A DNA stretch of 64,000 bases from Eledone cirrhosa (Eukaryota), in NCBI GenBank assembly GCA_964016885.1, contig OZ024747.1, positions 70,494,001 to 70,558,000 of the forward strand, given 5' to 3'. The position numbers were made by a program, and so were the translations under genes. The notes below the pieces were generated by a model. The model was given only the letters and a program-made list of their open reading frames with translations. It did no database searches and was not told the DNA's origin. Of the stretch, positions 5,684-61,039 are shown one piece after another; the stretch's first letter is position 1, and each line of letters begins with the position of its first letter.

Positions 5684-5975
5684 TGTATGCATCCATTCAT
5701 ACAACCATGTATGCATACATTCATACATACATGCAACCATGTATGCATACATTCATACATACATACAACCATGTATGCATACATTCATACATACATACAT
5801 ACATACATACATACATACATACATACATACATACATACATACGTACGTACAGCCATGCATACATACATAAATACATACATACACACACATATATATACAT
5901 ATATGCATATAATAAATGTATATGAGTGTATATGTGTGTGTCTGTGTGTGTGTGAATGTGTATGTATGTGTGTAT
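5684..5975. repeat. (CATA)n microsatellite with 32-36-bp higher-order units, followed by a TG-rich tract
   Basis: Repeated CAACCATGTATGCATACATTCATACATA units grade into pure (CATA)n. Confidence 0.93.
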
Positions 5976-40019: not shown

Positions 40020-40047
40020 TATTATTATTATTATTATTATTATTATT

Positions 40048-40423
40048 GTTCTTTGAGTCTCAGTCATTGATATTAGTTAACTGGAAAGTTTGTTGAAATG
40101 AATATCAAGCCACTACCTGCAGCCTCAGATATTCAGGACGTATCGGAGAGTTCTTGCTGTTCCCAGCAAGCATGCCTTTTGAAGTGTTCCAAAAAGCGGG
40201 GCGGGGCCAATTTTCTTTAACTATCCCTGGAAACTTTTTGAGATAGTACCTATTGCGTCTATGACAATCGGGACCACTTTGACTTCATGGCAGTTCCAAA
40301 TCCTTTTTACCTCCCACTTTAAGTCCTGGTATCGGTTAATTTTCTCCCTCTCCTTCTCTTGCACTCTCGTGTCGAATGGGCAGCCCACATCCACAATCAG
40401 GCACGATCTTTTTTCCTTGTCCA
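40048..40423 (-). mobile_element. Dong/R4-clade family B, 5'-truncated 3' fragment (RLE end plus 3' UTR)
   Basis: DKEKRSCLIVDVGCPFDTRVQEKEREKINRYQDL... plus a 3' UTR matching 53858-54231. Flanked by (ATT)n on both sides. Confidence 0.93.
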
Positions 40424-40443
40424 TATTATTATTATTATTATTA

Positions 40444-43400
40444 CAGTTGCATTTATCTTGCTTTATGTTCATACGAGTTATCACCGAGTCACAACCAGTG
40501 ATGTCAAGAGACAACAAGGTCCGCCATGTTCAAGAAAGAACATACATACTCACACATGCATCTTTAGTGTTTAGACTTGTGATGTACTTATATTGACAGA
40601 ATCTTCCTTAGTATATGGGCAGTTCCCATTAGTACTATCTTTTGTATTTCTCCTATACGCGGGTTTACTGTGATTTGCGATAAGTAATCATTAGACCCCT
40701 TAGGTATCATTCCCAGAGCGCCTACAACCACTGGTATTGTTTTAGTTCTCAATTTCCACATTTTTCCAATTTCTATCTCCAGGTCCTTATACTTGCTCAA
40801 TTTTTCAAATGTTTTTATAGATACATTCTTGTCTATTGGAACGGACATATCAATTAGCAGGCATACCCTCTTTTTAAAGTCCTTCAATATTATATCAGGT
40901 CTATTTGCATCTATTTTTCGGTCTGTTTGGATGCTAAAGTTCCACAAGATTGAGATGTGATCTTTTTCAAGTATGGGAGGTGGTTGATGCTCCCACCAAT
41001 TCTTTTGATGGGGCAGGTCAAAATGCTTACACATTATCCAATGTATGTATCGTGCAGCTCTGTCATGCCTGTTTAGGTATTCGGTTGGAGCTATAGGACT
41101 GCACATTGAAATTATATGGTCAATGGTCTCTGGTTGTTTTTTGCATACACGGCATAATGGGCTGCATCAATTTTTTATTATGTTGGCTTGGTAATTTTTT
41201 GTTGGCAGACACTGATCTTGTGCTGATATAATCAGTCCTTCAGTCTCCGATTTCAGTCCAGAGGATGCCAAACACTGATGGGTTAAAGTTTTGTCAACAT
41301 CAGGATTGTTAGCTCGTTTTGGGTATTTTCCATACGGAGGCTTTTCTTGCCATTTCTTAGCCAGTTTCTGTAGTAGTTCTTTCTTTGCAGTTACTTTTAC
41401 CTGCTTTGCTTTTTCTGTGTTTTCCATTTCAGCAGTAAATGGGAGTTCTGAAATTTGTAGTCCATTACTGTATCTTTGTGCATCTTTTGTAATGGAATAT
41501 GATCTTTTGATGCTTTCGTGTTTCAAAACGAGTTTGATCATCCAATCATGTGATTCCCTTAGATATGTGGATAATCCAATTGTTGCAGTTTTCAACGCAA
41601 TGTCTAACTGGATTAACCCACGTCCTCCTTCTTTCCTAGGGAGATATATTCTATCTGTATCTGCCTTAGGGTGATGCATTCTGTGCATGGTTAAGAATTT
41701 TCGAATTTTTGTATCGAGCCTACGGATCTCTGTGCTTGACCAGTTGATGACATTGTAACTGTAGGTTACTACTGGTATGGCAAGCGTGTTTATGTAAGAT
41801 TGCTCTTACTCTGCGGTAACATTCCTTCCTTATCCTTTCCCTCATTGTCGAGTGCTTGATTCCGTCTCCTTCACAAACACCTAGATATTTGTAAGTTTTT
41901 TCTTGATCAAGTTCTCTTATCACGTTCCCCCGATCAAGATTTATGTCTGAAGTCTTCAGCAGCTTTCCTCTGTGTACGTTGCTTTGGCGCATTTATCTAG
42001 TCCAAACTCCATTTTAATGTCATCACTAAACTGCTCCACAGTGGATAATAGCCCTTGCAATTGTTCATCATTTTTTGCAAATAGTTTCAGGTCATCCACG
42101 TAGAACAAGTGATTAATGGTTTTGTCATAGACTCTATATCCATGTTTTGTTTCATTGAGCATTTTACTTAATGGTATAAGTGCGATGCAGAATAAAAGCG
42201 GTGATAAAGAGTCACCCTGAATAATTCCACAATTAATATTAACTTCTCCAGCTTCCAGTGATTTTGTTTCACTATTCAAAAGGAGTGTCGTTTTCCATGT
42301 CTTCTTACTGAATGACAAAAGCCTCCTGACAACGGGGGATATTTTGAAAATCTCTAAACACTTTTCAATTCAACTGTGTGGTAAACTATCGAATGCTTTT
42401 TTATAATCTATCCAAGCAATTGATAGATTTTTGTGTCTATTATGACAATCTTCCAGTATCATTTTGTTAACCAAAAGCTGATCCTTACAGCCATATGAGC
42501 CTCGTTTACACCCTTTCTGCTCAATGGGAAATAGGTCATTTGCTATCAGGTGGTCATATGTATATTCAGTTAGGACTGATGTTAAAATGTTATACATTGT
42601 GGTCAAGCAAGTTATCGGTCTGTAATTTTTGGGATTGTTTGTCTCATCATTCTTCGGAAGCAGGAATGTAATGCCGTTAACTAGCCATGATGGTATCTTT
42701 TCTGGCTCCTTAACTATTTCATTGTAAAGTTGGGCTAACAGCTCATGAGACTCTGTGAAGGCATTTATCCAAAAATTTTGTATTTTGTCTTTTCCTGGGG
42801 ATTTCCATTTGCTGGTTTTTCTTAGAGCCAAGCGCAACTGTTCAACTGTTATATTTTCCCATGTTTGTTCTTCAAGGTGAGCTGTATCTTTCATTTGTCT
42901 GTCTATCCATGGGGCATGTATGTTATGAACTGTTTCTTCGGCCCAGATCTTTTCCCAGAATTCTTGCACTTCCTCCTTGGGTGGTATTGATTTAGCAGTT
43001 ATTGTTGACTTACCAATTTTTCTGTAGAAGTTTCTTTGGTTGTTTTTGAACATATTATTGTCCTTATAGAATCTAGATCGTTTTTCAAAGCGCCTTATAC
43101 GAGCAGCTTTGGCCGACACTTTTTGCTTGATTATTTCTATCAGCATGTCTATGTCACTTGTTGATTTTATACTGTACTTTCTTTTCAATTTTCTAAGTTT
43201 AGTTTGTTTAACATGTTCCCCTACTTTATAGTTTGTTAAAATTTCTATGTCAGATCGGAGAAGGTTTATTTGGCGATTGATGTTCTCTTGCCAAGTAGAT
43301 TTCTTGTGGGAATTCCTTTGTTTTTTCATCTTCACTCCACATAAGTGAGTGGTGACTTTAGCCAATGCATAATAGAGATGATTTAAATCAGTAATGTTTA

Positions 43401-44388
43401 GTTTGTTTGTGATGATAATGTTCTTGAGAATTATGTTAATCTTGTGTATTATCTTTTGGTTCTGTTTGGAGTTCTGGATCTTAGGGAGGGTGTCTCGTTG
43501 CCCCATGTCAGATTCTTTCATTTTCATCCATTCGATCATAATTTCATCCTTCAAGTTGGCAAGTTCATTCTCGTTCATTTCTTTATCATTTACGATCTCA
43601 TTATTTTCATTTCGAGTTTCATCTTGAGCATGCACTCCCTCCACTTTTTCGATCCTTTCTTTAATTTGTTCTGTTGGCAGTGATTCCGCCCCAACCCTGG
43701 GATTCGAAGTGTTACAATTTACCTCGTTTTCACTGACACATGTTTCATTTTCCCTTCGCTGACTTTGTGCCAATAGCTTGATCTGATCAATTTCTATATC
43801 AGTTAGTAACTTTTTTTTTACAATATTTCTTCGTATATTGGCTAGTTTGTTACTGTCAATATAGCCTCTGTTTTCGGGATGTTTCTTTTTCCAGTTGATA
43901 TATGTCTGTTCTGTATTCGATGTATTTGATGGGTAGTACATGGCAGTGTAGAAAGCCTCAAGGACTTCTTTATTATCTTCCCTTGACCATTTTTCTCTCT
44001 TTTTCTTTGGATTTCTTGGTGGTGAGCATGGAGGTCCAACAGTAGGAGTATTCCGGTTATGGGAGGTCTCCAGCTCCGAAGTAATGGGAAGGTTTGAACC
44101 ATTAGCTGATTTTTCGACCCCAGTCTGGTTCCTCTCTGAGGGACGCGGCCCTTTTTTACCCGGGTGACGGCCGATCCGGTATGAGATTTTATCATTAGAC
44201 ATTTACTTTATTTTGTCGCGTTTTATCCTTATCCGCCAAGGGGTAATCATTTCGTGTTACCACTTCTAGAACGAGTGTCAACCAAGACTAGAGGGGTCGT
44301 TCTCCCCTAGAGACACGGCTATTCCCCGCCGGCTGCCATACCGGTATTTCTTGGTCACGGGGTTTTCTTTTTTGTTGTTTTTTTAAAT
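40444..44388 (-). mobile_element. Dong/R4-clade non-LTR retrotransposon family A, apparently full length (~3.95 kb)
   Basis: Single-ORF architecture: N-terminal Myb-like motif (KWSREDNKEVLEAF...W...DSNKLANIRRNI), RT (SPGKD, NYRPITCL, IDYKKAFDS, QGDSLSP, YVDD), CCHC, and restriction-like endonuclease (RPDIIL...LIDMSVP...K..KY.DL). (ATT)n at 40424-40443 and 44391-44400. Confidence 0.95.
40588..44202 (-). pseudogene. Disrupted ~1,200-aa Myb-RT-CCHC-RLE polyprotein of Dong/R4 family A, copy 1
   Basis: Split across ORFs 42370-44202, 41956-42318, 41167-41688 and 40588-41106. It has a premature TGA at 42370 (TGG in copy 2), a frameshift near 41970, a 35-bp deletion at 41794 relative to copy 2, and a stop at 41167. 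Confidence 0.93.
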
Positions 44389-44444
44389 TGTTATTATTAT
44401 GAGTGGTTCCTTAGTGTGAGCATTGCGTGGCTTAAGAATGAAAT

Positions 44445-44500
44445 TATTAATAATTGTCTCCACTCCAGGCACAAGGCCAGCAATTACCCAGTGCATTACA
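44445..44500 (-). mobile_element. 3' fragment of the (ATT)-tailed SINE
   Basis: The reverse strand reads GTAATGCACTGGGTAATTGCTGGCCTTGTGCCTGGAGTGGAGACAATTATT. Confidence 0.8.
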
Positions 44501-44986
44501 ATAATATAATATACTTTTTGCTGAAGTTGCCTGTTATTGTTGTTGGCTATGTCGGTGGTGGTGCTGGGGCTTTTTATATTGTTGGTGAGGAAGTGGGGAG
44601 CAAGCAGTGCCATAGTTGTTGACGTTTGGCCGGTGGCCGGGTCACTAAGTAAATCTATTTATATCTTTTGCTAGCCTCTCACTTGTCTAGTGATACCGCC
44701 ACCTTCCCCTTTCTTAAGTTAACAGGGGAATAGTGGTGGTAGCAATAAAGGAGTGGTGGCAGCGGTGATGGCATAGTGGTAGCAATGATGGATGAAGTGG
44801 TGGCGGAGGTGGCGTTGTCGTTACTGAGTTTTGTTGAATGGACTAGTTTTGTTTGATATGTAGTATCTATGCGTTTGTGTGGCGTATGTTTAATATATAT
44901 GTTGACATATTCCCTTAATATTGGAATTAAACATTTTGTTAAAACTTGAGACAATAATAATAGTAATTATTATTATGATGCTTGGG

Positions 44987-45026
<40 letters not shown>

Positions 45027-45027
<1 letters not shown>

Positions 45028-47836
45028 AGTTGCATTTATCTTGCTTTATGTTCATACGAGTTATCACCAAGTCACAACCAGTGACCTCAAGAGACAACAA
45101 GGTCCGCCATGTTCAAGAAAGAACATACATATTCACACATGCATCCTTAGTGTTTAGACTTGTGATGTACTTATATTGACAGGATCTTCCTTAGTATATG
45201 GGAAGTTCCCATTAGTACTATCTTTTGTATTTCTCCTATACGCGGGTTTGCTGGGATTTGCGATATGTAATCATTAGACCCCTTAGGTATCATTCCCAGA
45301 GCGCCTACAACCACTGGTATTGTTTTAGTTCTCAATTTCCACATTTTTCCAATTTCTATCTCCAGGTCCTTATACTTGCTCAATTTTTCAAATGTTTTTA
45401 TAGATACATTCTTGTCTATTGGAACGGACATATCAATTAGCAGGCATACCCTCCTTTGAAAGTCCTACAATATTATATCAGGTCTATTTGCATCTATTTT
45501 TCGGTCTGTTTGGATGCTAAAGTTCCACAAGATTGAGATGTGATCTTTTTCAAGTATGGGAGGTGGTTGATGCTCCCACCAATTCTTTTGATGGGGTAGG
45601 TCAAAATGCTTACACATTATCCAATGTATGTATTGTGCAGTTCTGTCATGCCTGTTTAGGTATTCGGTTGGAGCTATAGGACTGCACATTGAAATTATAT
45701 GGTCAATGGTCTCTGGTTGTTTTTTGCATACACGGCATAATGGGATGCACCCATTTTTTATTATGTTGGCTTGGTAATTTTTTGTTGGCAGACACTGATC
45801 TTGTGCCGATATAATCAGTCCTTCAGTCTCCGATTTCAGTCCAGAGGATGCCAACCACTGATGGGTTAAAGTTTTGTCAACATCAGGATTGTTTGCTCGC
45901 TCTGGGTATTTTCCATACAGAGGCTTTTCTTGCCATTTCTTAGCCAGTTTCTGTAGCAGTTCTTTCTTTGCAGTTACTTTTACCTGCTTTGCTTTTTCTG
46001 TGTTTTCCATTTCAGCAGTAAATGGGACTTCTGAAATTTGTAGTCCATTACTGTATCTTTGTGCATCTTTTGTAATGGAATATGATCTTTTGGTGCTTTC
46101 GTGTTTCAAAACGAGTTTGATCATCCAATCATGTGATTCCCTTAGATATGTGGATAATCCAATTGTTGCAGTTTTCAACGCAATTTCTAACTGGATTAAC
46201 CCACGTCCTCCTTCTTTCCTAGGGAGATATATTCTATCTATGTCTGCCTTAGGGTGATGCATTCTGCGCATGGTTAAGAATTTTCGGATTTCTGTATCGA
46301 GCCTACGGATCTCTGTGCTTGACCAGTTGATGACATTGTAACTGTAGGTTACGACTGGTATGGCAAGCGTGTTTATGGCATCGATCCTATTCCTTGCATT
46401 CAATTCCGTTCTTAAGATTGCTCTGACTCTGCGGTAACATTCCTTCCTTATCCTTTCCCTCATTGTCGAGTGCTTGATTCCGTCTCCTTCACAAACACCT
46501 AGATATTTGTAAGTTTTTTCTTGATCAAGCTCTCTTATCACGTTCCCCCGATCAAGATTAATGTCTGAACTCTTCAGCAGCTTTCCTCTGGTGAACTCTG
46601 CTTTGGCGCATTTATCCAGTCCAAACTCCATTTTAAGTCATCACTGAACTGCTTCACAGTGGATAATAGCCCTTGCAATTGTTCATCATTTTTTGCAAAT
46701 AGTTTCAGGTCATCCATGTAGAACAGGTGATTAATGGTTTTGTCATAGACTCTATATCCATGTTTTGTTTCATTGAGCATTTTACTTAATGGTATAAGTG
46801 CGATGCAGAATAAAAGCGGTGATAAAGAGTCACCCTGAAAAATTCCACAATTAATATTAACTTCTCCAGCTTCCAGTGATTTTGTTTCACTATTCAAAAG
46901 GAGTGTCGTTCTCCATGTCTTCATACTGAATCACAAAAACCTCCTGACAACGGGGGATATTTTGAAAATCTCTAAACATTTTTCAATCCAACTGTCTGGC
47001 AAACTATCGAATGCTTTTTTATAATCTATCCAAGCAATCGATAGATTTTTGTGTCTATTATGACAATCTTCCAGTATCATTTTGTTAACCAGAAGCTGAT
47101 CCTTACAGCCATATGAGCCTCGTTTACACCCTTTCTGCTCAATGGGAAATAGGTCATTTGTTATCAGGTGGTCATATGTGTATTCAGTTAAGACTGATGT
47201 TAAAATTTTATACATTGTGGTCAAGCAGGTTATTGGTCTGTAATTTTTGGGATTGTTTGTCTCATCATTCTTCGGTAGCAGGAATGTAATGCCGTTAACT
47301 AGCCATGGTGGTATCTTTTCTGGCTCCTTAACTATTTCATTGTAAAGTTGGGCTAACAGCTCATGAGACTCTGTGAAGGCATTTATCCAAAAGTTTTGTA
47401 TTTTGTCTTTTCCTGGGGATTTCCATTTGCTGGTTTTTCTTAGAGCCAAGCGCAACTGTTCAACTGTTATATTTTCCCATGTTTGTTCTTCAAGGTGAGC
47501 TGTTTCTTTCATTTGTCTGTCTATCCATGGGGCATGTATGTTATGAACTGTTTCTTCGGCCCAGATCTTTTCCCAGAATTCTTGCACTTCCTCCTTGGGT
47601 GGTATTGATTTAGCAGTTATTGTTGACTTACCAATTTTTCTGTAGAAGTTTCTTTGGTTGTTTTTGAACATATTATTGTCCTTATAGAATCTAGATCGTT
47701 TTTCAAAGCGCCTTATACGAGCAGCTTTGGCCGACACTTTTTGCTTGATTATTTCTATCAGCATGTCTATGTCACATGTTGATCTTATACTGTACTTTTT
47801 TTTCAATTTTCTAAGTTTAGTTTGTTTAACATGTTC
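45027..47836 (-). mobile_element. Dong/R4-clade family A, copy 2, 5'-truncated and disrupted
   Basis: Colinear with 40444-43217 with scattered substitutions. ORFs 46931-47806, 46574-46924 (YMDD), 45465-46631 and 45171-45431. Same 3' end as copy 1. (ATT)n at 44987-45026 and 47840-47889. Confidence 0.95.
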
Positions 47837-47837
47837 A

Positions 47838-47889
<52 letters not shown>

Positions 47890-48098
47890 GGCGACCTACG
47901 TAGGAAATCGTATTATCGTGAGCTCCGCAAAGGTTTGTTATTTCCATTTGTTTAAAAATTGCCATTTATGGAAAATTTTATTGTAAACTGTTTATAAGCA
48001 CACATACATTGTTTTCCGAAAAGGACACCCAAAAAGATTGGGGCCTTGTGCCCAAAATTTTAACTTTTATTATTATCCAAAAATTTCTTTGAAAAAAA

Positions 48099-50082
48099 AT
48101 GGCTAATTCCCCTCTGCACGAAGCAGCTGAAAGCCTTCCTCACAAAATAACACCTCACACCGACACCACCATTGTAAATGTTACTACGTTTGCCAACACA
48201 AAAAAAAATATAAGCAGTAGCAATATTTTAAATTTGTCTCAGGCAGACATTCATTTCCCGCCATTACCAATGACTGCAGGTGTTAAACCCTCCACCACCA
48301 CCACCACCGCGACAACCACCACCACCACCACCACCACCGCGACAACAGAAACAAAAGAAGAAAAAAATAAATTAACTCGTGACGTCGAAATGAAATCAAG
48401 CAAAATGGACTCTTCCCCACCAAAGACGACTGACGTCACCACCACCACAACTGAAAATAAAATTAATATTAACGATAGCAACAACAACAACAATGACATT
48501 ATAAAACCGACCCTCAGTTTCGCCATCGTAGCAAAACAATTCGAAGCGTTCACGGTAACTCAAGAAGATTTAGAAAATGCCAAACAAATGGTAAAGAAAG
48601 ATGGGTACAGCGTCCCCCCCCCCACCTAATAAAATGGAGCATCGGCGCCTGTGCACCGTGTCGTATAGAACAATAAATGTAAAATCGCGCCGAGTGGAAC
48701 GGGCATTCGAGTCCCAAATCCAAAAAGCTTTGGGACATGTGTGGGCAAGAAAAACCCACATCAGACGTGGGCAAAAGTATGGAACCGTGGATGTGTTCTT
48801 TGAAACACCAGAGGAGGCTAGAGAACACTCCATGGCCCCATTAAAAAGTGACGACCTCACACTCGTCCCTAGCTATTGTGGCCAGAGACTCGTAAAGATC
48901 AGGGTGACCCACGTTCCACCGGCCATCGAAATTCCCTGGCTAATAGCGGCTGTCCTCGCCGGCATCGAAGCCAACACGAAAATAATAGCAGTAGCAAAAG
49001 AAAAGCAGGAAAACTGGTCCGGATCTGGGATGGAGCTCCTGATCCAAGCGGACCAAAAAAGCATTGAGGAGATCCCAGAGGTAATAGACCTCACTGACGG
49101 CAGCCACCTCACGGTAATTGTCGAGGGCAGAAGACCTAGGTGTGTCGTTTGTGGTGAAGGAACCCACCCAAGGGCTTTCTGCCCTCAGGCTAAAAGGTTG
49201 AGGCCACCTCTCCTACCCACCCCAGTGACACAACCATCAACACCACCAGTAGCAGAGATGGCAGCAACAACTGTAGCAGCAACAACAGAAGCAACTATAA
49301 CAGCAACAACCCCAGCAACAGTAGCAAAACCAACACCACTACCACCACCAGCAAAACCAACACCACCACCACCCAACGCTTCAGAACTAGCACCAGCGCC
49401 TACACCATCCACCACACCACAACCAAAACTAACGGCTGTGGAGGATTTTCCACTCCCCGGCCTATCACAACTGGAGACAGATTGTGACGACGAGGAGTGG
49501 GAAACGATATCCGGAAAAAAAAAAAGAAACCAAAAAAGAAAAAATTCTCTTCCTTCCCCCTCCAAAAACAAAATACAGAGGGAAACAAATAAACTAAGAA
49601 ACAAAAAAGTTAGGACAGATATGCCACCATCCACACCAGCATCACCAACCCCATCAACTCAAACACCAACACCATCACCATCATTATCCCCAGCACCACC
49701 ATCACCTACACCACAAAAGTCACCAAAAAGCGAAACAGAAACAAACCCACAACAAACGCAAACAAAACAAAACAACCAAAACGATACACACTACACAGCA
49801 TTAAATTTGAACAACAAGCAATTATTACACTACATCCAACACAACACCAGCATCACAGAAAAAGACTACACAACAACCCCAAAATTCACACCACCTCCAC
49901 ACATACAAATCACTCGCATCACACAGAAAACGTACATGACACTAAAACAAAAATTCCCCAAAGACATCGGAGACTTCCGACAAGCACTCTCCAGGAGGAT
50001 TTATAAGGACATCCTTCCTGAGGAGGCCACAAGCAGTGAAAAGGATGGAAAAGCCGTCCTTCCCCTACGAGAAGTAAGGTAA
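48099..50082 (+). CDS. LINE ORF1 (RRM-like region plus CCHC zinc knuckle, Thr/Pro-rich linkers), ~660 aa, split by a one-base frameshift in a C10 run
   Basis: ORFs 48099-48629 and 48601-50082 overlap at the C run 48614-48623, and removing one C fuses them. Motifs: YGTVDVFFETPEEA, V.I.V..VPP.I, and EGRRPRCVVCGEGTHPRAFCP (CX2CX4HX4C), typical of Tx1-type ORF1. Confidence 0.85.
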
Positions 50083-50116
50083 GTGGTCTTTCCCATCTTT
50101 TCCACTCCTTTTCAAC

Positions 50117-53100
50117 ATGACCTCACTCAGAATAGGCAGCATAAATGCGCGTGGCTTGGGGTCGTCATGGAAGCAGGGCCACCTGCTCAACGACCTCAGG
50201 TCACTAAACATAGATGTAGTGGCCATCAGCGAGACCAGAATCTTCGAAGCACAGGCTTTCGCACCGATCTTCGGCGGCTACGATGTGTACGCATCTCCCA
50301 GCCGTCCGGGATCGGGGGGAGGAGTTGCTGTGCTTTTTCGGAGAGGTTTGGATCTTGCCATACGGGCCATCTTCCTGGTCCCAGAAGGTAAGTTGGTGGT
50401 GCTGGACGTGACCAGCGGAGACGGGCAAGCTTTCAGGTTAGTGGCCGTCTATGCCCCGACAGGAGCAGGGCGGCCTGATTTCTTCCGGCGTCTGGAGACC
50501 TTTCTTGGAACGTCCCGCTCTTTAGTGTTAGTGGGCGACTGGAACGGGATCTTAGATGCACGCTGGGATTGTGTGGGATTAGTGGATAGGGAAGGAGGGT
50601 GCAAGAGTCTCACCAACCTGCTCAGACGTTTTGAACTGTCTGACAGGTACCGAATGGATTTCCCGAATGTACCAATGTGGACTTGGACAAATCGCATAGG
50701 GTCATCCAGATCATATCTAGATAGAGTATTTTGTAGGGAAATAGATAGGTCTAGCATAGGCTGTCCACAATTCAAGATAGTCAGCTACACGGACCACAAA
50801 TTCGTGATCTGTGTGCTTGACTTAGATAGGCTTCATAGACGAGGACCCGGCTACTGGAAGTTAAACGCGTCCTTACCAGCGCGCAAGGCCTACAGAGACC
50901 GGATTAGCGAACTAGTTAAGCGGGCGTTGACGGGGGCCATCGTCAACAACAAGTGGTGGTTTGCTCTGAAAAGAGCGATTAGAATAGAGTCCATTAGGTT
51001 TAGTAAGACTTTATCAATAGAGAAAAATAGAGCAGAGGGAGAATTAGTTAGAAAATTAGATGAGGCGCTTAGCAAAGGCATCGCGACCGACGTACTTGCG
51101 GCGAAATTGGCCCTTGACCAATTCTTCAATGCAAAGCACGAAGGAGGCTGCGTTGTCAGAGCTAGGGTGCGTGCTCTCAGACACGAGGGGACGAAAGCCG
51201 TTCAATGGGCCCGAGTGGCGGAGGCGCGTCGTGGCAACAAAGCCACGATCCGGTCTTTGGTGGACCACGACGGGCGCATGCTACTCGATCCCGGGCAAAT
51301 GTGTGAAGCTTTTCAGCCACACTTCGCTCAACTGTTCGGGGGCAGTGGCGGGCCGGATCGAGGGATGGACTTTAGTGTCTACCTCGACGGACTGCCGCGG
51401 CTTTCGGCCACTGAGGCGGAGTGTTGCGAAAAGCCGATAACAACCGCTGAAGTACGGGATGCAATGACTAGTTGCAGAAGGGGTAAATCGCCTGGTTTGG
51501 ATGGTCTGCCCTATGAACTTTACGTACAAATGCCAAACTTGTTCGGAGGCCTCTTGGCGGACGTCTACTGCAACTGGCAACAGAACGGGAGAATTCCCAG
51601 TTCTGTGAGCCCAGGAGCGGTGGCGCTGCTGAGAAAGGATCCGAACAAGGGAGATAACATAGATAATTTTAGGCCCATAACTCTGCTAAACACAGAGTTC
51701 AAGATTTTGGCCAAGGTGCTAGCAAAGAGGTTGGCGCTTGTCGTTGGTGGTCTGGTGGGAGAGGCACAGACATGCGCCATTCCCGACAGATCCATCCACG
51801 ACAACCTCCACCTCATGCGATACATCGTAGAGAGGGTAGCTAGGGAACCTGGCACGGGTGGGTCTTTGATCAATTTAGATCAGTCGAAAGCCTTCGATAG
51901 GGTCGACCATCGTTACCTAACGGCAGTCCTGAGGGCGGCTGGCTTTGGGCCCGTCTTCAGAGGCTGGATCGCTGCCATGCACAGCGACATCTGCTCTGTA
52001 GTGAGAGTGAACGGTCACCTTTCGGAACCGTTCAACATCATGCGCTCGGTCCGCAAAGCATGTCCCCTCTCGTCCCTACTGTACGTATTGACTCTCGAGC
52101 CATTACTGCACAAACTGGAGACGTTGAGGGGGGTCCCGCGCGAACTAGGATGCGGAAGATCCGTGTCAGCATATGCCGACGATGTCACCGTAGTGGTGTC
52201 GAACGCCAAACACATCGAGGCGATCGGCACTACACTAAGAGAATACGAAGCGGTGACAGGAGCAATGATCAACCAGGAAAAGTCAGTGGGCCTGCAGCTC
52301 GGCACCTGGAGAGGTAGGTCCATGCCGTCCAACAGCGTCGTCGGGCGCTGGATGGACGGACCGGTTAAATTGCTAGGGTCTGGTTCGGTCCGGACCTCCA
52401 GACGGACAAAAAACTGGGACGAGGTGACGAGCAGGGTGGCTTCTCTCACCCAGAAATGGGCCGAGAGGAAGCTATCCCTGAAAGGTCGAGCGGAGGTGGC
52501 GAATGCGTACATCGCATCCGTCATCTACTACCGCCTGACCGTCGTACCTTGTCCTAAGCCCCGCCTGACTGCGCTGGAGCGTTTGCTCTTTCGCTTCTTG
52601 TGGAAGGGACGCGCCCCGATGGTCAGGCGGTCCATCTGCTGTCAACACCCGCTACGTGGAGGGCTGGGCATGCCGTGGCTGATGATGCGCAGACACGCGC
52701 TCAGGCTACGACATCTCCACCTCTTCCTCGACGGTGATCAGGTGTGGTCGCCGTTTGCAAGACACGTTTTTCCCCAGCTCGTCTCCTTGACGGAGCTGCA
52801 GTCCTGGGTCAAGCGAAGACCGAGAGGGAGCGCTTGGAGACTGGAATGTCTTCAGGCGCTCACAGCCCTCGACCAATCGGGCAATGTGATCGGTGGAAAC
52901 TCCACCTTGGCGTTCTATAGGGGATTAGTGGAGGGGAAGAGCGACGACGTACTTGGAGAAACTCTAGGCGTCGACGAAAATCAACTAGCCAATCTCTTCG
53001 GAAGGACTTTCGGGCCGGGGCTTATGGACAACTTCCAGAAATCCCTGGCCTGGCAGTGCTACCGAGGAGCTTTGCCAGTTCGGGATAAACTCTACAGGCA

Positions 53101-53539
53101 TGGAGGTGCCGTCAGCCGGGCATGTCCGAGATGCACGCAGGGCGACGAAACCGTCCTGCACGCACTCGTCCAGTGTCCGAACATTGCTGACTTGTGGGTT
53201 TATGTCGAACACCTGCTGTCACGTGTAGGACGGATCCGGCTATCAGCTGAGTCCATCGTGAGGATTGCCCCGCCCCCTTCCTTTAGCCTGGAAGGGCAGG
53301 CAGTTTGTATCTGTCTGGTGGCCATGGCGAAAGAGATAGTATGGTGGACACGTTTGAAAGGGCTGAAGACGAGCACTTACCTCTTCGGTGATGCCCTGAT
53401 TAACTTTTTCAAATTTCATTTGAAAAGGAAAATCAGGGTAGAGAGGGAAGTGCTCTCTTCCCAGCATTTTGTTGAAAGATGGGTGAGAGAAGCAAGAATG
53501 GCCCGAGTGAATGGGCCGACTCTGAGTATATATCTGTAA
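50117..53539 (+). CDS. LINE ORF2: AP endonuclease, reverse transcriptase and C-terminal Cys-rich domain (1140 aa)
   Basis: APE motifs SINARG, ISETR, VYAP, GDWN, YLDRVF, YTDH; GPGYWKLN linker; RT motifs KSPGLDGLP.E.Y, FRPITLLN, DQSKAFDRV, YADD; L1/Tx1-type LSLKGRA and GGLG.P; CPRC...ETVLHALVQC. Confidence 0.96.
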   Translation: MTSLRIGSINARGLGSSWKQGHLLNDLRSLNIDVVAISETRIFEAQAFAPIFGGYDVYASPSRPGSGGGVAVLFRRGLDLAIRAIFLVPEGKLVVLDVTSGDGQAFRLVAVYAPTGAGRPDFFRRLETFLGTSRSLVLVGDWNGILDARWDCVGLVDREGGCKSLTNLLRRFELSDRYRMDFPNVPMWTWTNRIGSSRSYLDRVFCREIDRSSIGCPQFKIVSYTDHKFVICVLDLDRLHRRGPGYWKLNASLPARKAYRDRISELVKRALTGAIVNNKWWFALKRAIRIESIRFSKTLSIEKNRAEGELVRKLDEALSKGIATDVLAAKLALDQFFNAKHEGGCVVRARVRALRHEGTKAVQWARVAEARRGNKATIRSLVDHDGRMLLDPGQMCEAFQPHFAQLFGGSGGPDRGMDFSVYLDGLPRLSATEAECCEKPITTAEVRDAMTSCRRGKSPGLDGLPYELYVQMPNLFGGLLADVYCNWQQNGRIPSSVSPGAVALLRKDPNKGDNIDNFRPITLLNTEFKILAKVLAKRLALVVGGLVGEAQTCAIPDRSIHDNLHLMRYIVERVAREPGTGGSLINLDQSKAFDRVDHRYLTAVLRAAGFGPVFRGWIAAMHSDICSVVRVNGHLSEPFNIMRSVRKACPLSSLLYVLTLEPLLHKLETLRGVPRELGCGRSVSAYADDVTVVVSNAKHIEAIGTTLREYEAVTGAMINQEKSVGLQLGTWRGRSMPSNSVVGRWMDGPVKLLGSGSVRTSRRTKNWDEVTSRVASLTQKWAERKLSLKGRAEVANAYIASVIYYRLTVVPCPKPRLTALERLLFRFLWKGRAPMVRRSICCQHPLRGGLGMPWLMMRRHALRLRHLHLFLDGDQVWSPFARHVFPQLVSLTELQSWVKRRPRGSAWRLECLQALTALDQSGNVIGGNSTLAFYRGLVEGKSDDVLGETLGVDENQLANLFGRTFGPGLMDNFQKSLAWQCYRGALPVRDKLYRHGGAVSRACPRCTQGDETVLHALVQCPNIADLWVYVEHLLSRVGRIRLSAESIVRIAPPPSFSLEGQAVCICLVAMAKEIVWWTRLKGLKTSTYLFGDALINFFKFHLKRKIRVEREVLSSQHFVERWVREARMARVNGPTLSIYL

Positions 53540-53857
53540 ACTAAAGGTGGAAAACTGGGAGAGGGCACTTGCCTTGGTGGTCAGGGTCATTGTGGCTTTT
53601 TACTGGGCTTTCTCCACAAATGTCCCTCCGAAGTCTCCCTCCTATTGGGGAATTTTTCATTTTTATTTTTTGTTACATCCTCTGTTTTTGTTTTTTACAC
53701 GCAGAAATGCCCATTTGTACCGTCCTGCATTGTCCTGCACTGTCCTTAATGTCTACTTTATGTAAACCCTTGTGGTTAATAAAGAAATCATTATTATTCA
53801 TGTTATTATTCGTGTTATTATTATTATAATTATTATTATTATTATTATTGTTGTTAT

Positions 53858-56627
53858 TCCTTGAATCTCAGTCATTGATGTTGGTTAACTGGAAAATCCG
53901 TTGGAATGAATATCAAGCCACTACCTGCAGCCTCAGATATTCAGGACGTATCGGAGGGTTCTTGCTGTTCCAAGCAAGCATGCCTTTTGAAGCGTTCCAA
54001 AAAGCGTGAAAGGGCCGATTTTCTTTAACCATCCCTGGAAACTTTTGGAGATAGTCCCCAGTGCGTTTATGACAATCGGGATCACTTTGACTTCATGGCA
54101 GTTCCAAATCCTTTTCACCTCCCACTTTAGGTCCTGGTATCGGTTAATTTTCTCCCTCTCCTTCTCTTGCACTCTCGTGTCGAAAGGGCGGGCCACATCC
54201 ACAATCAGACACGATCTTTTTTCTTTGTCCACAACCACCAGGTCAGGTCTATTGTGTTCCAGTTTTTTGTCCGTCTGTATCCTAAAATCCCACAGCACCT
54301 TCACCTGATTGTTCTCCATTACCGCCTCTGGCCTATGCTCATACCATTTCTCAGAATGTGGTAAATTGTTTACTTTGCACAGGTGCCAGTGGATCACCCT
54401 GCCCATCACATCGTGTCTCCAGCCCTTATAGTGGGTCTGGGCTAGGTGTTTACACTCGGACACAATGTGAGCCACAGTCTCCTCTCTCTCTCCACAGATC
54501 CTGCACAGTGGGCTAGCCTCCTCCTTGTAAATATGGTGCTTCAACCACTTCGTTTTGAGGGCCTGCTCCTGCGCAGCCATTAGCATTCCTTCTGTAGCCT
54601 TTTTGAGGTCTCCTCTTCTCAACCAGTTCCATGTCTGTGGATCTCTAAATTCAGTTTTCTCAAAGAAGGTACTATGAAGGGATTTTCCCTTAAGGCTGCT
54701 CTTCCTCCTTGATGTTATTTCCTCCTTGGACATCCCCTGGCCTACTGTCCCCTCCTTCAGTACAGTTCTGAGCATTGGCTCCTTACTATAGGTCACGTAT
54801 TTGTATAGGTTGTTTTTCTCCATCTGAACACAGTCCTCTATGCTGATAAGACCTCTTCCACCCTCAGATCTCCTTAGGTAGAGTCTATCGACGTCACTCC
54901 TCTTGTGGAACATGTTGTAGATAGTCAATAGCTTCCTAGTCTTCCTATCCATTTCTTTTTGTTCAGCAACATTCCATCTCAGAATTCCCGCACTGTACCT
55001 AATAATAGACACAGCTCGGGAATTTACTGCGCTTATGGCATTTCTGCTGTTCAGATGTGACTTCAATACGCTCCTTACTCTCCTTCATTTTTTTGTTCTT
55101 TATGCCATCAGCCTCCAGAACGCCCAAATACTTGTATCCTTCCTCAGAGTCAATTTCCTTTATCATCTCACCTGTTGGTATCTGGATCCCGTTACTTCTG
55201 CTCAACCTACCCCTCCTCATCACAATGACTCCATATTTACTAATACCAAACTGCATACATATATCACTGCTGAAAATACGGACAGTGTCAACAAGCACAT
55301 CCAACTCCTTCTCACTTTTCCCGAAGAGCTTAAGATCGTCCATGAAGAGGAGGTGATTGATGGTAAGCACTCCCTTTCCCAACTTGTATCCTGCTCTCAC
55401 TTTTCGCAGCATAATGGTCAAGGGCATCAGGGCAAGGACAAACAACAGAGGGGACAGGCTATCTCCCTGGAAGAAACCTCTATTGATCTTCACGCTTCCC
55501 AAGGATACTCCAGTTGATGTCAACTCTGTCTCCCAGGACCCCATACTCCTGCCCAGCAACTGTCTGATGTTATCTGCCACCCTGAAGATCTCCAGGCTTT
55601 TGGTGATCCAAGAATGAGGCACCATGTCAAATGCCTTTCTGTAGTCTATCCATCCCATGGCAAGATCAGTGTGTCTCCTCCTGCAATTCCCCATTATCAT
55701 CTTATCAATAAGTAACTGGTCCTTTGTACCACGTGACTTCTTTCGGCATCCTTTCTGTTCGTCCGGCAACAAGTTGTTTGTGTGGAGGTGATGGTAGATT
55801 TCCTCAGACACAATGCTCGTCAACAGTTTCCACATTACGGACAGACATGTGATAGGTCTATAGTTGGTAACATCATTACCCTTGATTCGGTCTTTCATTA
55901 TCAGAACTGTGGTACCTTTTGTCAACCACTCTGGCACCTCACCCGACACCAAGCAGTCATTGAACATGGCCGTCAGCTTCGGGTGGAGGGATGTTAAATT
56001 TTTAATCCAATACCCCTGCACACCATCTGGGCCTGGTGATTTCCAGTTGGTTAGTTTTTTGGCCTGCCCCTTAAGAGTTTCAACTGTGATACTCAAATCA
56101 GTTTGTTGGTGTGCCTGCTCACCGATCTCCCTCTGTACTGTCTCAATCCACCCTGCCTGGAGATTATGTCTAACATCCTGCTCCCATATTCCTCTCCAGA
56201 ATGTTTTAGTTTGCTCCGCCCCAGGGATCAAGTCGTTGCCTCTTTCTTTCCCCTCAAGCTGTCCAAACAGCATCTTCTGGTTGTTGTCGAACATGCGGTT
56301 CTGTTTATACTGACTGACTCTGTTCTCGTATCGCCTGATTGTTGCACTCTTTGCTACAATGCGTTGCTTCAGTTCCTCTATGATAATATTTAGCTTTTTC
56401 CTCCTAGTTTTGTACTTTATTTCCAGTCTATTTTTAGTGCCTATGTTTTTTAGTGTCCCATTCAGTAGTGACTCAAGCTTTCCTATGTCATTTCTCATTT
56501 CCCCGATTTGACCACTCAGTCGTTTCTTCCACCACGGCTCTGCTCTTTCTTGTCTGTCGTTTCCTCTCGCTTTTATACCAAGTAGTTTCCTCACCGTATT
56601 TGCTGTTGCTTTGAGGATATTGTTGCA

Positions 56628-56628
<1 letters not shown>
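53858..56628 (-). mobile_element. Dong/R4-clade family B, 5'-truncated (~2.8 kb), frameshifted
   Basis: ORF 54999-56630 (KSPGPDG, NYRPITCL, IDYRKAFD, QGDSLSP, FMDD) and ORF 53933-55066 (CRIC...H...C, HNRPDLVV...IVDV). Clearly diverged from family A. (ATT)n on both sides. Confidence 0.95.
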
Positions 56629-56660
<32 letters not shown>

Positions 56661-56662
<2 letters not shown>

Positions 56663-57649
56663 TCCTTGACGGAGCTGCAGTCCTGGGTCAAGCGAAGACC
56701 GAGAGGGAGCGCTTGGAGACTGGAATGTCTTCAGGCGCTCACAGCCCTCGACCAATCGGGCAATGTGATCGGTGGAAACTCCACCTTGGCGTTCTATAGG
56801 GGATTAGTGGAGGGGAAGAGCGACGACGTACTTGGAGAAACTCTAGGCGTCGACGAAAATCAACTAGCCAATCTCTTCGGAAGGACTTTCGGGCCGGGGC
56901 CTATGGACAACTTCCAGAAATCCCTGGCCTGGCAGTGCTACCGAGGAGCTTTGCCAGTTCGGGATAAACTCTACAGGCATGGAGGTGCCGTCAGCCGGGC
57001 ATGTCCGAGATGCACGCAGGGCGACGAAACCGTCCTGCACGCACTCGTCCAGTGTCCGAACATTGCTGACTTGTGTGTTTATGTCGAACACCTGCTGTCA
57101 CGTGTAGGACGGATCCGGCTATCAGCTGAGTCCATCGAGAGGATTGCCCCGCCCCCTTCCTTTAGCCTGGAAGGGCAGGCAGTTTTTATCTGTCTGGTGG
57201 CCATGGCGAAAGAGATAGTATGGTGGACACGTTTGAAAGGGCTGAAGACGAGCACTTACCTCTTCGGTGATGCCCTGATTAACTTTTTCAAATTTCATTT
57301 GAAAAGGAAAATCAGGGTAGAGAGGGAAGTGCTCTCTTCCCAGCATTTTGTTGAAAGATGGGTGAGAGAAGCAAGTATGGCCCGAATGAATGGGCCTTCT
57401 CTGAGTATGTGTCTGTAAAATTAAAGGTGGAAAACTGGGAGAGGGCACTTGCCCTGGTGGTCAGGGCCACTGTGGTCTTTTAATGGGCTTTCTCCACAAA
57501 TGTCCCTTGGAAGTCTCCCCCCTATTGGGGAATTTTTCTTTGTTATTTTATTTCAACCTCTGTTTTTTTACACGCAGAAATGCCCATTTGTACCGTCCTG
57601 TATTGTCCTGTACTGTCCTTAATGTCTACTTTATGTGAACCCTTGTGGT
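56661..57649 (+). mobile_element. Tx1-clade LINE copy 2, 5'-truncated, missing its last ~13 nt
   Basis: Matches 52782 onward (TELQSWVKRRPRG...). Its 3' UTR is visibly more diverged from copy 1 than copy 3's is. Preceded by (ATT)n at 56629-56661. Confidence 0.95.
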
Positions 57650-58128
57650 GGCCATGGCGAAAGAGATAGTATGGTGGACACGTTTGAAAGGGCTGAAGAC
57701 GAGCACTTACCTCTTCGGTGATGCTCTGATTGACTTTTTCAAATTTCATTTGAAAAGGAAAATCAGAGTAGAGAAGGAAGTGCTCTCTTCCAGCATTTTG
57801 TTGAAAGATGGGTGAGAGAAGCAAGAATGGCCCGAGTGAATGGGCCGACTCTGAGTATATATCTGTAAACTAAAGGTGGAAAACTGGGAGAGGGCACTTG
57901 CCTTGGTGGTCAGGGTCATTGTGGCTTTTTACTGGGCTTTCTCCACAAATGTCCCTCCGAAGTCTCCCCCCTATTGGGGAATTTTTCATTGTTATTTTCA
58001 TTGTTATTTTTGTTACATCCTCTGTTTTTGTTTTTTTACACGCAGAAATGCCCATTTGTACCGTCCTGCATTGTCCTGCACTGTCCTTAATGTCTACTTT
58101 ATGTAAACCCTTGTGGTTAATAAAGAAA

Positions 58129-58130
<2 letters not shown>
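57646..58130 (+). mobile_element. Tx1-clade LINE copy 3, 5'-truncated, with a complete 3' end
   Basis: Matches 53316-53789 and ends TAATAAAGAAATC followed by (ATT)n, exactly as copy 1 does. Confidence 0.95.
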
Positions 58131-58190
<60 letters not shown>

Positions 58191-58331
58191 TATTATTATA
58201 TATTATTATTATTATAATATATATATATTATTATATATATTATTATATATATTATTATATATATTATTATATATATTATATATATTATATATATTATTAT
58301 TATTGTTATTATATATAATATATATATATAT
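58131..58331. repeat. (ATT)n tract grading into mixed (ATT)/(TA) low-complexity sequence
   Basis: Directly visible. Confidence 0.95.
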
Positions 58332-58332
58332 A

Positions 58333-58539
58333 GGGCGGTGAATTGGCAAGTATCGGTAGAGGGTTGGACGCCATGCTTTCTAGCATAGTTACGTCCCTTT
58401 ACAGTCTGAGTTCAAATCGCCCGCCGAAGGTTAACTTTGCCTTTCATCCTTACGGGGTCGATAAAATAAAGTACCAGTAATGTACTGGATAATTGCTGGC
58501 CTTGTGCCTAAAGTAGAAACAATTATTATTATTATTATA

Positions 58540-58540
<1 letters not shown>
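58333..58540 (+). mobile_element. Full-length tRNA-derived SINE with an (ATT)n tail
   Basis: GGCGGTGAATTGGCAAGTATCGG (A-box-like), TGAGTTCAAATC (B box), body TTTGCCTTTCATCCTTACGGGGTCGATAAAATAAAGTACCAG, and 3' end GGCCTTGTGCCTAAAGTAGAAACA(ATT)n. Several homologues occur in the window. Confidence 0.9.
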
Positions 58541-58575
<35 letters not shown>

Positions 58576-58578
<3 letters not shown>

Positions 58579-58689
58579 AAAAAATGGGGAGAAGAATACT
58601 GCAGGTTGCACATGGATAACATGTTATAAAATGAATCCCTCATCAGTGATTTGCCAACGATCATAGATATTTCATTGCATTAAAAATCA
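58576..58689 (-). repeat. Homologue of the 38430-39190 repeat, cut by the gap
   Basis: The reverse complement TGATTTTTAATGCAATGAAATA...GTTGGCAAATCACTGATGAGGGA...ATGTGCAACCTGCAGTATTCTTCT aligns with 39069-39175. Confidence 0.8.
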
Positions 58690-58889
58690 NNNNNNNNNNN
58701 NNNNNNNNNNNNNNNNNNNNNNNNNNNNNNNNNNNNNNNNNNNNNNNNNNNNNNNNNNNNNNNNNNNNNNNNNNNNNNNNNNNNNNNNNNNNNNNNNNNN
58801 NNNNNNNNNNNNNNNNNNNNNNNNNNNNNNNNNNNNNNNNNNNNNNNNNNNNNNNNNNNNNNNNNNNNNNNNNNNNNNNNNNNNNNNNN
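58690..58889. other. Assembly gap (200 N)
   Basis: A run of exactly 200 N, typical of a fixed-size scaffolding spacer. Confidence 0.99.
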
Positions 58890-59179
58890 TTGCTCATAAA
58901 ATCTGTTCAGTGATTCTTTCCTGAAATATTCTAACCACATCACCATAATATTAGAGATGTGATCTCTCAATTCAGAGAAGTAGTGGTTCTACCTGGAGCG
59001 ACTCTCTGATTTACAAGATACACACTCTATTCAAGTAACATTATTCGGTCACTTGTATTTGCGATTGTATTCTTTCATTCATTACTCAAGATTCATGTAA
59101 AATGTGTCTAATTTAATATTATTTTTGTTCTTTTTTAGGACATGCTTGTTTGCATGGAGCTTTTAAATAATGTGACTAC

Positions 59180-59356
59180 TTTTTTGGCACAGAGCCCAGC
59201 AATTACTCAGTGCATTACTGGTACTTTATTTTATCAACCCCGTAAGGATGAAAGGCAAAGTTAACCTCGCGGGATTTGAACTCAGAATGGAAAGGGCCGT
59301 AACTCTATGCATCAAAGCATGGCATCCGACCCTCTCCTGATACTGCCAATCCACCT
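59180..59356 (-). mobile_element. tRNA-derived SINE copy (CpG-decayed)
   Basis: Colinear with 36000-36190. Confidence 0.9.
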
Positions 59357-61039
59357 TTAAATAATGGTGATTAATTTATGAATTTCTGTTAACTGAAAGA
59401 GCAATGTGTACTGTAGAAATCTTCAGTATTTTTTGTCTTTTGTTCAGATGGTAGGAAGAGCACTTTATATTTTGTCTTCTAAATCTCACTGGTTTTACTG
59501 GCAATTTATTTTGTCACTAACTTCTTGCTGTGCCATCATTAACAAGGTTCCCCACAACACAGGGGAACTTGAGGTGGCCTGTGTGACTTGGAACCAGCTC
59601 AGTCTTTGCCCTGTTGACATCCATTCCCCTCATTCATCTGTAGATATCCATTCCTCTTAAAGAAAATCAGATGCCTTCCAATGCAACATGACCTCAGACA
59701 GGACAGTGCACAGCTTGACCAGCACCATCTGGCCTGGTTTTACTTTGCATACCAACTCCACAGCTGTGCCTGGCTTAACACCAAACCCTTGCTCTCAACT
59801 AGTACTCAGCTTAACAGTAACTGTTTGCACATCAGTCTTTCTCTGAGGCTCGACCTCTAGATCTGTGAACCACACAATTTCCACTGTGGATCTAATGTTG
59901 ACTCTTTTGGACTCTTTCCTTTATCTTACCATAAACAATGCTGGCTGCCTACCATATCATGCTACTCTCAACAAGATTATAAAGCATGGCTTGCATGCCA
60001 AAAGTTTTTCTCCCCCAGCTCGAATCAGCTGGCTGAACCAAGAGGATGGCAAAAATCCTGACAGTATAGCAATCTTTCCATTCCATGATGCTACATACTA
60101 TGACACTTTCTCCAGTGACAACCTGCAGCATTTGGTGACTAACCTAGGTTTCACTGCTCATCAAATCAAAGAAGGCAAACTATCAAAATATTAATTTGCT
60201 CTCCAGTGGTTTGTGTCAAGCCTCTAGAAATGGAGACTTGCACCATGGACCACATTCCCTACTCACTACTATCAGGGTAGAGTTGGCTACACACAGGAGT
60301 GACTCTTCCCCACAAGATGGAATGGCAATTCCAATACGTCTCCCTTGCCATCCTGTAGAACAGTGTTTATTTCCATTTTGTTCACTAGGATCACAAGGTG
60401 GCCCTGCATATGTATGGGTTTATCTTCAATTTTCAAATCATAAGTTTTGTCTTTCATTTTTTTAACAATGAGGATGATGATGATTTTCATTGTCCTTATA
60501 TTGGCAGACATTCTTGCCATGACCAATTCCTTGTTTCCTCTGTCTATGCAATCAAAGGCCACGTATACAATGTGTCCTCTTTTAACATGGGCAGGATGTG
60601 TAATTTGAAAATGATTTAGCTACCATTCTAAAAATGGCTGAATAGCCATACAGAGATGTGTTTGGTGACTTGAAGTACATTATTTCTTCCAGCAGGGTGA
60701 ACTTAAGAATAGAGAATCAGTAATTTGTCTAAAAACACATCTCATCTGAATGAATTTATAAGATTTGGAAATATAACACCCCATCAACTAAACTGTTTCA
60801 CTTCAGCTGCAATTTTTTAATTAAATATTATTTCCAATGAAATATATCAAGTCATGGGACAGTAATCCTATCATATGCAGATATATGTGTGTGTTATACT
60901 GTGCATTTTCATATGCACAAATATCACGTGTGATTTCTCTTAGTTGTTTAGAGGGTCTAATTTATTACTGTTATAGTCATGATAGTATATTATATTGAAG
61001 TCTTAAATCTATGTGTATTTGTGTATTAGTGCATATATA

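Follow-up and report, generated by a model that had tools for sequence, protein, structure and literature searches.

The LINE at 47890-53789 and its flanks

The stretch of DNA analyzed here, hereafter the window, comprises 64,000 nt of contig OZ024747.1 of Eledone cirrhosa, and all positions are numbered within it. At 47890-53789, on the plus strand, it carries a full-length long interspersed nuclear element (LINE) of 5900 bp, which belongs to a family that is specific for (ATT)n genome-wide. The first-pass annotation of the window had proposed a full-length LINE at these positions, and this is borne out by two open reading frames (ORFs) and by 5′ and 3′ ends that were each fixed by 30 loci. 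All 30 top loci with the same kind of 5′ end (type A) begin at the same G directly after ATT; 15 of them sit head to tail behind another copy, and the other 15 are unstacked yet have a tract.

The type-A 5′ untranslated region (UTR; 47890-48098) is followed by ORF1 (48099-50082), whose ATG lies at 48099. ORF1 contains a CCHC knuckle, CVVCGEGTHPRAFC, that is seen directly in the sequence. A Pfam search of ORF1 gave nothing above the cut-off; its middle part resembles ZCCHC3/RRM-CCHC proteins, and the language-model look-alikes zf-CCHC (0.93) and ZCCHC3 RBD (0.90) serve as a lead only. In intact copies, the ORF1 frames span 661 to 715 residues and are separate from and upstream of ORF2; in the window copy, the frame is split by a frameshift at a poly-C run near 48615-48629. 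The sequence GAAGTAAGGTAAGT at the ORF1 stop (50070-50082) resembles a splice donor. ORF2 (50117-53539, 1140 aa) encodes an endonuclease domain (50180-50746), a reverse transcriptase (RT) domain (51650-52294), and a C-terminal CCHC region (53039-53197), as matched by Pfam (PF03372, PF00078, and PF13966). The endonuclease keeps its catalytic N, E, Y, D-N, D, and D-H, and the RT keeps its YADD motif. Although ORF2 is open for 1140 aa, it is damaged at residues 647-648 and 755-764: the RT motif RQGCPLS has KA in place of QG (RQG>RKA), and a 10-residue stretch is read out of frame. The 3′ UTR (53540-53789) contains a predicted hairpin, AACC-CTTGT-GGTT (53765-53777), and an AATAAA (53778-53783).

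At the 5′ junction, GGCGACC at 47890 directly abuts (ATT)16 (47842-47889), which is also the 5′ flank of a truncated Dong-like copy on the minus strand. At the 3′ junction, an imperfect (ATT)n (53790-53858) abuts the 3′ end of another minus-strand Dong-like copy. A second copy of the LINE, 96% identical, lies on the plus strand at 56662-58130, between (ATT)11 (56629-56661) and an (ATT)18 that decays into an AT-rich repeat (58131-58332). It is 5′-truncated, with a junction at element position 4893/4894 and one T common to tract and element. The first-pass annotation had its 5′ junction and 3′ end right; the copy itself, however, is a composite of two pieces (element 4893-5887, then 5427-5900) that join between 56662-57649 and 57646-58130 via a short GTGG match. 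The window sequence also agrees with the initial description of the junctions, in that both 5′ ends follow (ATT)n and both 3′ ends, 53789 and 58130, read AATAAAGAAATC and then ATT without poly(A), the former entering the imperfect tract and the latter 18 pure units. Each 5′ tract does lie between two element 5′ ends, since a retrotransposon on the minus strand, truncated at its 5′ end, borders it on the far side (frames 46931-47839 and 54999-56687). Searches of 47700-59500 for tRNAs, ribozymes, and other Rfam families gave no match.

Genome-wide ATT flanks and duplications

The 5′ ends were counted genome-wide by their exact 5′-end pattern, with and without ATTATT in front. ATTATT precedes 2209 of 2308 type-A ends (95.7%) and 2395 of 2447 ends of a second type, type B (97.9%), in one fixed phase in 96 to 98% of the 4755 ends. 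Because ATTATT stands at 0.16% of positions in a comparison sample of 110 kb and the reversed-pattern controls gave 0 matches, this flank is not due to chance. An A is missing at both −3 and −6 in only 10 of the 2308 type-A ends, of which 7 still lie in ATT tracts, 1 follows (CTT)n, and 2 are joined directly to Dong-like sequence. For 3′ ends, the pattern was the exact 3′ end, then ATTATT, then A, C, or G, which makes the count a lower bound; at least 8078 of 9489 exact 3′ ends run into ATTATT in this manner. The specificity for (ATT)n that had been claimed from the window thus holds across the genome, and full-length copies rarely have 5′ flanks other than ATT. A family has been regarded as target-specific when more than 20% of its flanks are of one kind (PMC4494074), and both percentages given above, which concern full-length 5′ ends, lie well beyond that mark.

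The flanks were also followed in a position-ordered set, the first 60 3′ ends encountered on contig C1 (out of at least 100 listed), with full-length status checked by hand. In this set, 36/60 copies are full length, at least four ATT units stand upstream of 35 of these 36, and ATT follows 59 of the 60 3′ ends. A (CTT)n 5′ flank was found in 2/60 copies, and TC or TTC is not the target. Elsewhere, (CTT)n tracts adjoin copies L070, L162, L185, L188, L243, and L299, twice followed by an unidentified sequence starting with G; these neighbors perhaps reflect a CTT-seeking family.

Types A and B have ORF2 and the 3′ UTR in common (95.5% identical from element position 2146), whereas their 5′ halves (5′ UTR plus ORF1) cannot be aligned as DNA and their ORF1 products are 41% identical over 402 columns (L074, L083, and others against window 47890-50034). 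Three further 5′ ends (GGTCT, GGTTGG, and GAGACGG) likewise begin with G after ATT or ATTAT. Sister families (L084, L062, L065, and L156), with 74 to 80% DNA identity, have 3′ ends reading GGCC-AATAAAGAAATC or GGCT-AATAAATGAAATC and are stacked in the same ATT tracts. Type-B tandem arrays (L250, L276, L279, and L178) have identical spacers of 24 to 54 bp and a period of ∼6.07 kb, and are either long duplications up to the neighbor's 5′ end or products of unequal crossing-over.

The 4755 exact 5′ ends compare with 9489 exact 3′ ends genome-wide, and about half of the copies are full length (36/60 sampled), which is an unusually high share for a LINE. Both ORFs pass length cut-offs in 1/56 type-A and 10/33 type-B copies (89 full-length copies read). 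Identity to the nearest copy over the last 3.5 kb is 99.0 to 99.9% in 17/17 selected copies and ∼98% for the window copy. Judged by these identities and frames, the family is recently active while the window copy is itself damaged, so that the near-intact ORFs and recent activity ascribed to the window copy describe the family instead.

A tail carried by the element and target DNA look alike in pure ATT tracts and can be told apart at imperfect sites. Of the copies with the 40 best 3′ matches, 14 are truncated; 7 of these follow a tract, 2 have a duplication, and 5 have neither. The two duplications are 17 and 15 bp long, start with ATTATT and ATTAAT, and have no added tail. A short-tract set was then defined as the 58 sites, out of 357, with exactly two ATT units 3′ of the element. 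Of its 42 copies that are not full length, 17 have a duplication of 9 to ∼19 bp, the ends being blurred by microhomology and two having been read by eye. The duplications are mostly 12 to 19 bp, start with ATTAT, and add no tail, and T or C precedes ATTAT in 18/19. Copies with different truncation points (L200, L264, and L277) are found at the same host site. A tail together with a duplication was sought in 21 truncated copies with a long 3′ tract, with 0 true cases; one candidate, L195, was ruled out as an internally deleted full-length copy. Since the duplications at imperfect sites come without an added tail, the ATT downstream of the element derives from the target. This supports one part of the earlier argument that the tracts are no 3′ tails and must derive from the target; that the 5′ tract of full-length copies is target DNA throughout is not proved by it.

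The minus-strand neighbors in the window are both 5′-truncated. The element at 45026-47839 represents a first family and is 96% identical to 40424-43218. The element at 53859-56628 represents a second family; its RT is nearer R2 (91 bits) than L1 (52 bits), RHD and PD..D..K motifs can be seen, and no endonuclease match was found in Pfam. We take both to be Dong/R4-like and of the restriction-like endonuclease (RLE) class, which is consistent with the R2-like RT and with the lack of a match to an apurinic endonuclease (APE). In the position-ordered set, Dong-like ends flank 9/36 full-length 5′ ends and 20/60 3′ ends, 28/29 of them antisense. Flanks that match ends of this LINE, of Dong-like elements, or of the short interspersed nuclear element (SINE) described below make up 21/36 upstream and 34/60 downstream. 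Further upstream in the window, 40020-47839 is a minus-strand array of Dong-like copies of two families spaced by ATT tracts, including one near full-length copy (40443-44986) with a SINE piece inside it (44448-44499), and 7355-26236 is a satellite of ∼1180 copies of the 16-bp unit GTCTTTTTCTACAACA with 96% matches.

A candidate SINE partner and the proposed mechanism

At 58334-58521, on the plus strand and thus in the orientation of the LINE, lies a SINE-like element of ∼190 bp that is a candidate non-autonomous partner. It ends with TGGC-CTTGT-GCCT-AAAGTAGAAACA followed by ATTATT. The element gave no tRNA or Rfam match, and the label MetaSINE was dropped because by eye the sequence is unlike BivaMeta-SINE1 (PMC4824008, part of the supplement). 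The SINE tail has 111,418 exact matches. At the first 30 places, ATTAT follows 26, duplications are present in 19 (7 to 30 bp by script, 15 of them 11 to 19 bp), and long tracts are present in 3.

The LINE, its sister LINEs, and the SINE all end with a CTTGT loop on a 4-bp stem, 12 to 13 A-rich bases, and then ATT. The predicted stems differ yet pair: AACC/GGTT in the LINE, GGCC/GGCT and GGCC/GGCC in the sisters, and TGGC/GCCA in the SINE. LINE and SINE thus have 3′ sequence and structure in common, but over a short length, and the likeness is weaker than in classic stringent LINE-SINE pairs. We consider it likely that the LINE ORF2 also copies the SINE. A similar hairpin, GGGC-CTTGT-GCCC, is predicted in the 5′ UTR (48041-48053, plus strand), and type B has a counterpart, GGGT-TTTGT-ACCC, at a like place (element position 176 in L074). 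Elements of either type have exactly two such hairpins, one at the 3′ end and one 40 to 55 nt before ORF1, with compensatory change. The 5′ UTR hairpin was matched in 6 and 8 of 2000 shuffles, for a motif that was defined after the fact, and its loop varies, being CTTGA in 16/58 type-A heads.

The explanation that we favor, and consider probable, is that this is a young, high-copy L1/Tx1-group LINE that lies almost only in (ATT)n, likely by target-primed reverse transcription after a nick at AATAAT/R, and that its preference for long tracts is likely sharpened by pairing of AUU units in the RNA with DNA. What is seen at imperfect sites suggests cutting at a short motif, a pyrimidine followed by ATTAT, rather than recognition of a long tract. 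Given duplications that start with ATTAT after T or C, the endonuclease would nick the AAT strand at 5′-AATAAT/R-3′. The transcript would end a few AUU units past the element, since the AATAAA 12 nt before the element end would place cleavage inside the tract. These AUU units would pair with the cut DNA strand, and reverse transcription would start within them and skip any poly(A), so that none is copied; pairing between primer and tail is known to help L1 pick its sites (PMC4014453). A second nick 12 to 19 nt on would produce the duplication. The ORF2 protein (ORF2p) would recognize the 3′ hairpin (CUUGU loop, 4-bp stem, and A-rich spacer) and so copy the SINE too, whose occurrence at lone ATTAT sites could reflect a shorter AUU overhang used by the same enzyme. 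Because every insertion would be flanked by ATT on either side, the target would persist and further copies would accumulate there. All steps beyond the duplication pattern are deduced from sequence; transcript ends were sought in the contigs of four RNA runs and none were found.

Several observations weigh against this explanation. Among the 14 truncated copies of the best 3′ matches, 5 have neither a 5′ tract nor a duplication, while 9 keep one or the other. The 24 copies of the position-ordered set that are not full length have at least four ATT units upstream in 4 cases, at least two units in 6, and a duplication in 2 more; 17 of the 24 have a long 3′ tract, and 3/24 starts were left unresolved. 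Truncated copies without a 5′ tract can plausibly be read as later deletions or as target deletions, the former because internal deletions are common. In the short-tract set, the distinctive duplication is absent from 25/42 copies that are not full length, and a duplication of 12 to 19 bp was found in 0/16 full-length copies, whose 5′ side is an ATT tract. Later point changes or later neighbors explain most of these 16 sites, which leave the origin of the 5′ tract undecided. The 5′ junction of full-length copies may form differently, and their 5′ tract may be partly RNA-borne, annealing to the target. In addition, the outer base pair of the stem is lost in GCCT, the most frequent SINE variant, and the 3′ hairpin is weak, with a predicted energy of about −2 to −4 kcal/mol.

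The best-placed alternative, although in our judgment an improbable one, is that the endonuclease alone reads long (ATT)n tracts through their (AAT)n strand, without RNA pairing, and that G follows ATT in a fixed phase because the second nick falls at the same T/A step and transcripts begin at that G. All five 5′ types do start with G right after ATT or ATTAT, and published work on this group ascribes target choice chiefly to the endonuclease (PMC4494074, PMC3812793). Isolated ATTAT sites, however, have received short truncated copies of the LINE as well as the SINE, and the duplications there are the same. The endonuclease hairpin loop, at 9 residues, is as long as that of human L1 and shorter than the 11 residues of Xenopus Tx1L, its length being no predictor of specificity.

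Less probable still is that the element writes its own tracts, its RNA carrying AUU repeats at both ends and inserting at any short ATTAT site. This would fit the contrast between full-length copies, 35/36 with long 5′ tracts, and truncated ones, 4/24 with such tracts but 17/24 with a long 3′ tract, as well as the lack of a short duplication in 16/16 full-length copies with a broken 3′ tract. Against it, no copy combines a tail with a duplication, and among the copies listed (108 examined, from a small set of fetched loci), there was no case of a full-length copy breaking into a host repeat without a tract. Most flanks belong to the ends of elements that themselves seek tracts, in the proportions given above, and 11 truncated copies do follow long tracts (7/14 among the best 3′ matches and 4/24 in the position-ordered set). 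That insertion is loose, with copies surviving only in ATT tracts through selection or spreading by tandem or segmental duplication, is scarcely credible: 15/30 type-A loci are stacked, some arrays have identical spacers (L250, L276, L279, and L178), and some loci are duplicates (L054/L055 and L075/L076/L088), but the phase is fixed in 96 to 98% of the 4755 ends, unstacked copies have unrelated flanks, truncation points differ at one host site (L200, L264, and L277), and the duplications always start with ATT.

Relationship to known retrotransposons

The LINE has the traits of the L1 group, namely an N-terminal APE, an RT, and a C-terminal CCHC in ORF2, a separate ORF1, and duplications together with 5′ truncation. 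The hallmark of the Dong/R4 clade, a C-terminal RLE without APE, is absent, as APE is present. The best solved relative of ORF2 is human L1 ORF2p (167 to 185 bits), and the best characterized and named one is Xenopus Tx1L ORF2 (P0065; 313 bits, 29% identity). An Argonauta protein is 67% identical to ORF2, and the closest relatives outside cephalopods (P0003-P0046), at ∼40% identity, are unnamed assembly proteins with hundreds of cluster members. A quick tree was built from 44 RT rows, of which 40 were proteins chosen by hand from 82 + 120 matches. Types A and B, a sister, and Argonauta form a clade (support 99); Xenopus Tx1 and the fish rows form another (100), and the former lies outside it. 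The tree is unresolved at its base and has no row for L1 proper or named Kibi or Koshi. P0078 and P0079 were rejected as stand-ins for L1 proper since their scores against human L1 do not exceed that of Xenopus Tx1, and a further search for homologues yielded a list of Tx1-like rows alone. By score, ORF2 is nearer to Xenopus Tx1 than to human L1, and membership in the Tx1 clade is likely.

What appears to be new here is the (ATT)n target for an L1/Tx1-group LINE; the microsatellite-specific lifestyle of Tx1 families was already known. The targeting of microsatellites by APE-type LINEs is described in a review as "not well understood" (PMC3812793). This family provides nearly identical insertions by the thousand, copies that are intact, and imperfect sites from which the cut motif can be read, and the SINE acts as a natural in-trans control, so that the respective shares of endonuclease and RNA pairing become testable. 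The scheme would also name the engine for a SINE of more than 100,000 copies in a lineage where SINEs amount to about a tenth of the genome (11.6% in Octopus vulgaris, PMC13282606). ATT/AAT markers in this genome sit on active insertion sites and should be used with caution.

In O. vulgaris, 13 recently active L1-Tx1 families with 421 insertions have been described and Dong-R4 is also annotated (PMC13282606). The present LINE may have a counterpart among these families; the word "target" is absent from the main text of that paper, and octopus annotations, in the excerpts used, list L1-Tx1 and Dong-R4 without targets (PMC13282606, PMC8967140, PMC9115989). Our literature search, which did not extend to Repbase or Dfam, found no ATT-specific Tx1 and no Tx1 partner for an octopus SINE.

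The closest parallels are the Tx1 families Kibi, specific for (TC)n, Koshi, specific for (TTC)n, and the crocodilian elements in (TTCC)n/(TTTC)n (PMC4494074, PMC3812793). All are APE/RT LINEs from the L1/Tx1 group with a microsatellite as their specific target; here, the target is (ATT)n rather than a pyrimidine tract, the host is an invertebrate, and full-length copies number in the thousands. Since the LINE falls outside the Xenopus Tx1/fish clade of the quick tree, in which no row is named Kibi or Koshi, microsatellite targeting may have arisen separately. A more far-reaching proposal, which we regard as possible but doubtful, is of a lineage separate from Kibi and Koshi that reaches (ATT)n through a nick at a short T/purine motif together with RNA-DNA pairing at either end, has the hairpin both in its 5′ UTR and at its 3′ end, drives one of the dominant SINEs of the genome, and maintains self-renewing ATT pads shared with Dong. 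Within that proposal, the two hairpins would help explain the high share of full-length copies, about half, and the exactness of their 5′ junction.

Dong elements seek the same microsatellite and here share its tracts with the LINE, but differ in their opposite orientation and in an endonuclease that we take to be of the RLE class. TAA specificity is on record for Dong of B. mori, DongAg, and DongBg (PMC3812793). Xenopus Tx1L, by contrast, targets a unique site in Tx1D and has the longer endonuclease hairpin loop (PMC1950540). The human L1 and Alu pair offers likenesses in a T/purine nick in A+T DNA (TTTT/AA for human L1, PMC1950540; deduced for the present LINE), duplications near 15 bp, likely pairing of primer and tail, and an abundant SINE passenger (PMC1950540, PMC4014453, PMC3747384); here, however, no poly(A) is copied, and the SINE has a structured 3′ end in common with the LINE. 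Finally, SINEs have been inferred to ride on Tx1/L1-group LINEs before, as with SINEU on Tx1-Mar (PMC4494074) and the plant and algal L1-SINE pairs, which have a common 3′ hairpin (PMC3747384). In the present case, the link would be made by a target signature together with a co-varying 3′ hairpin, and the SINE exceeds 100,000 copies.

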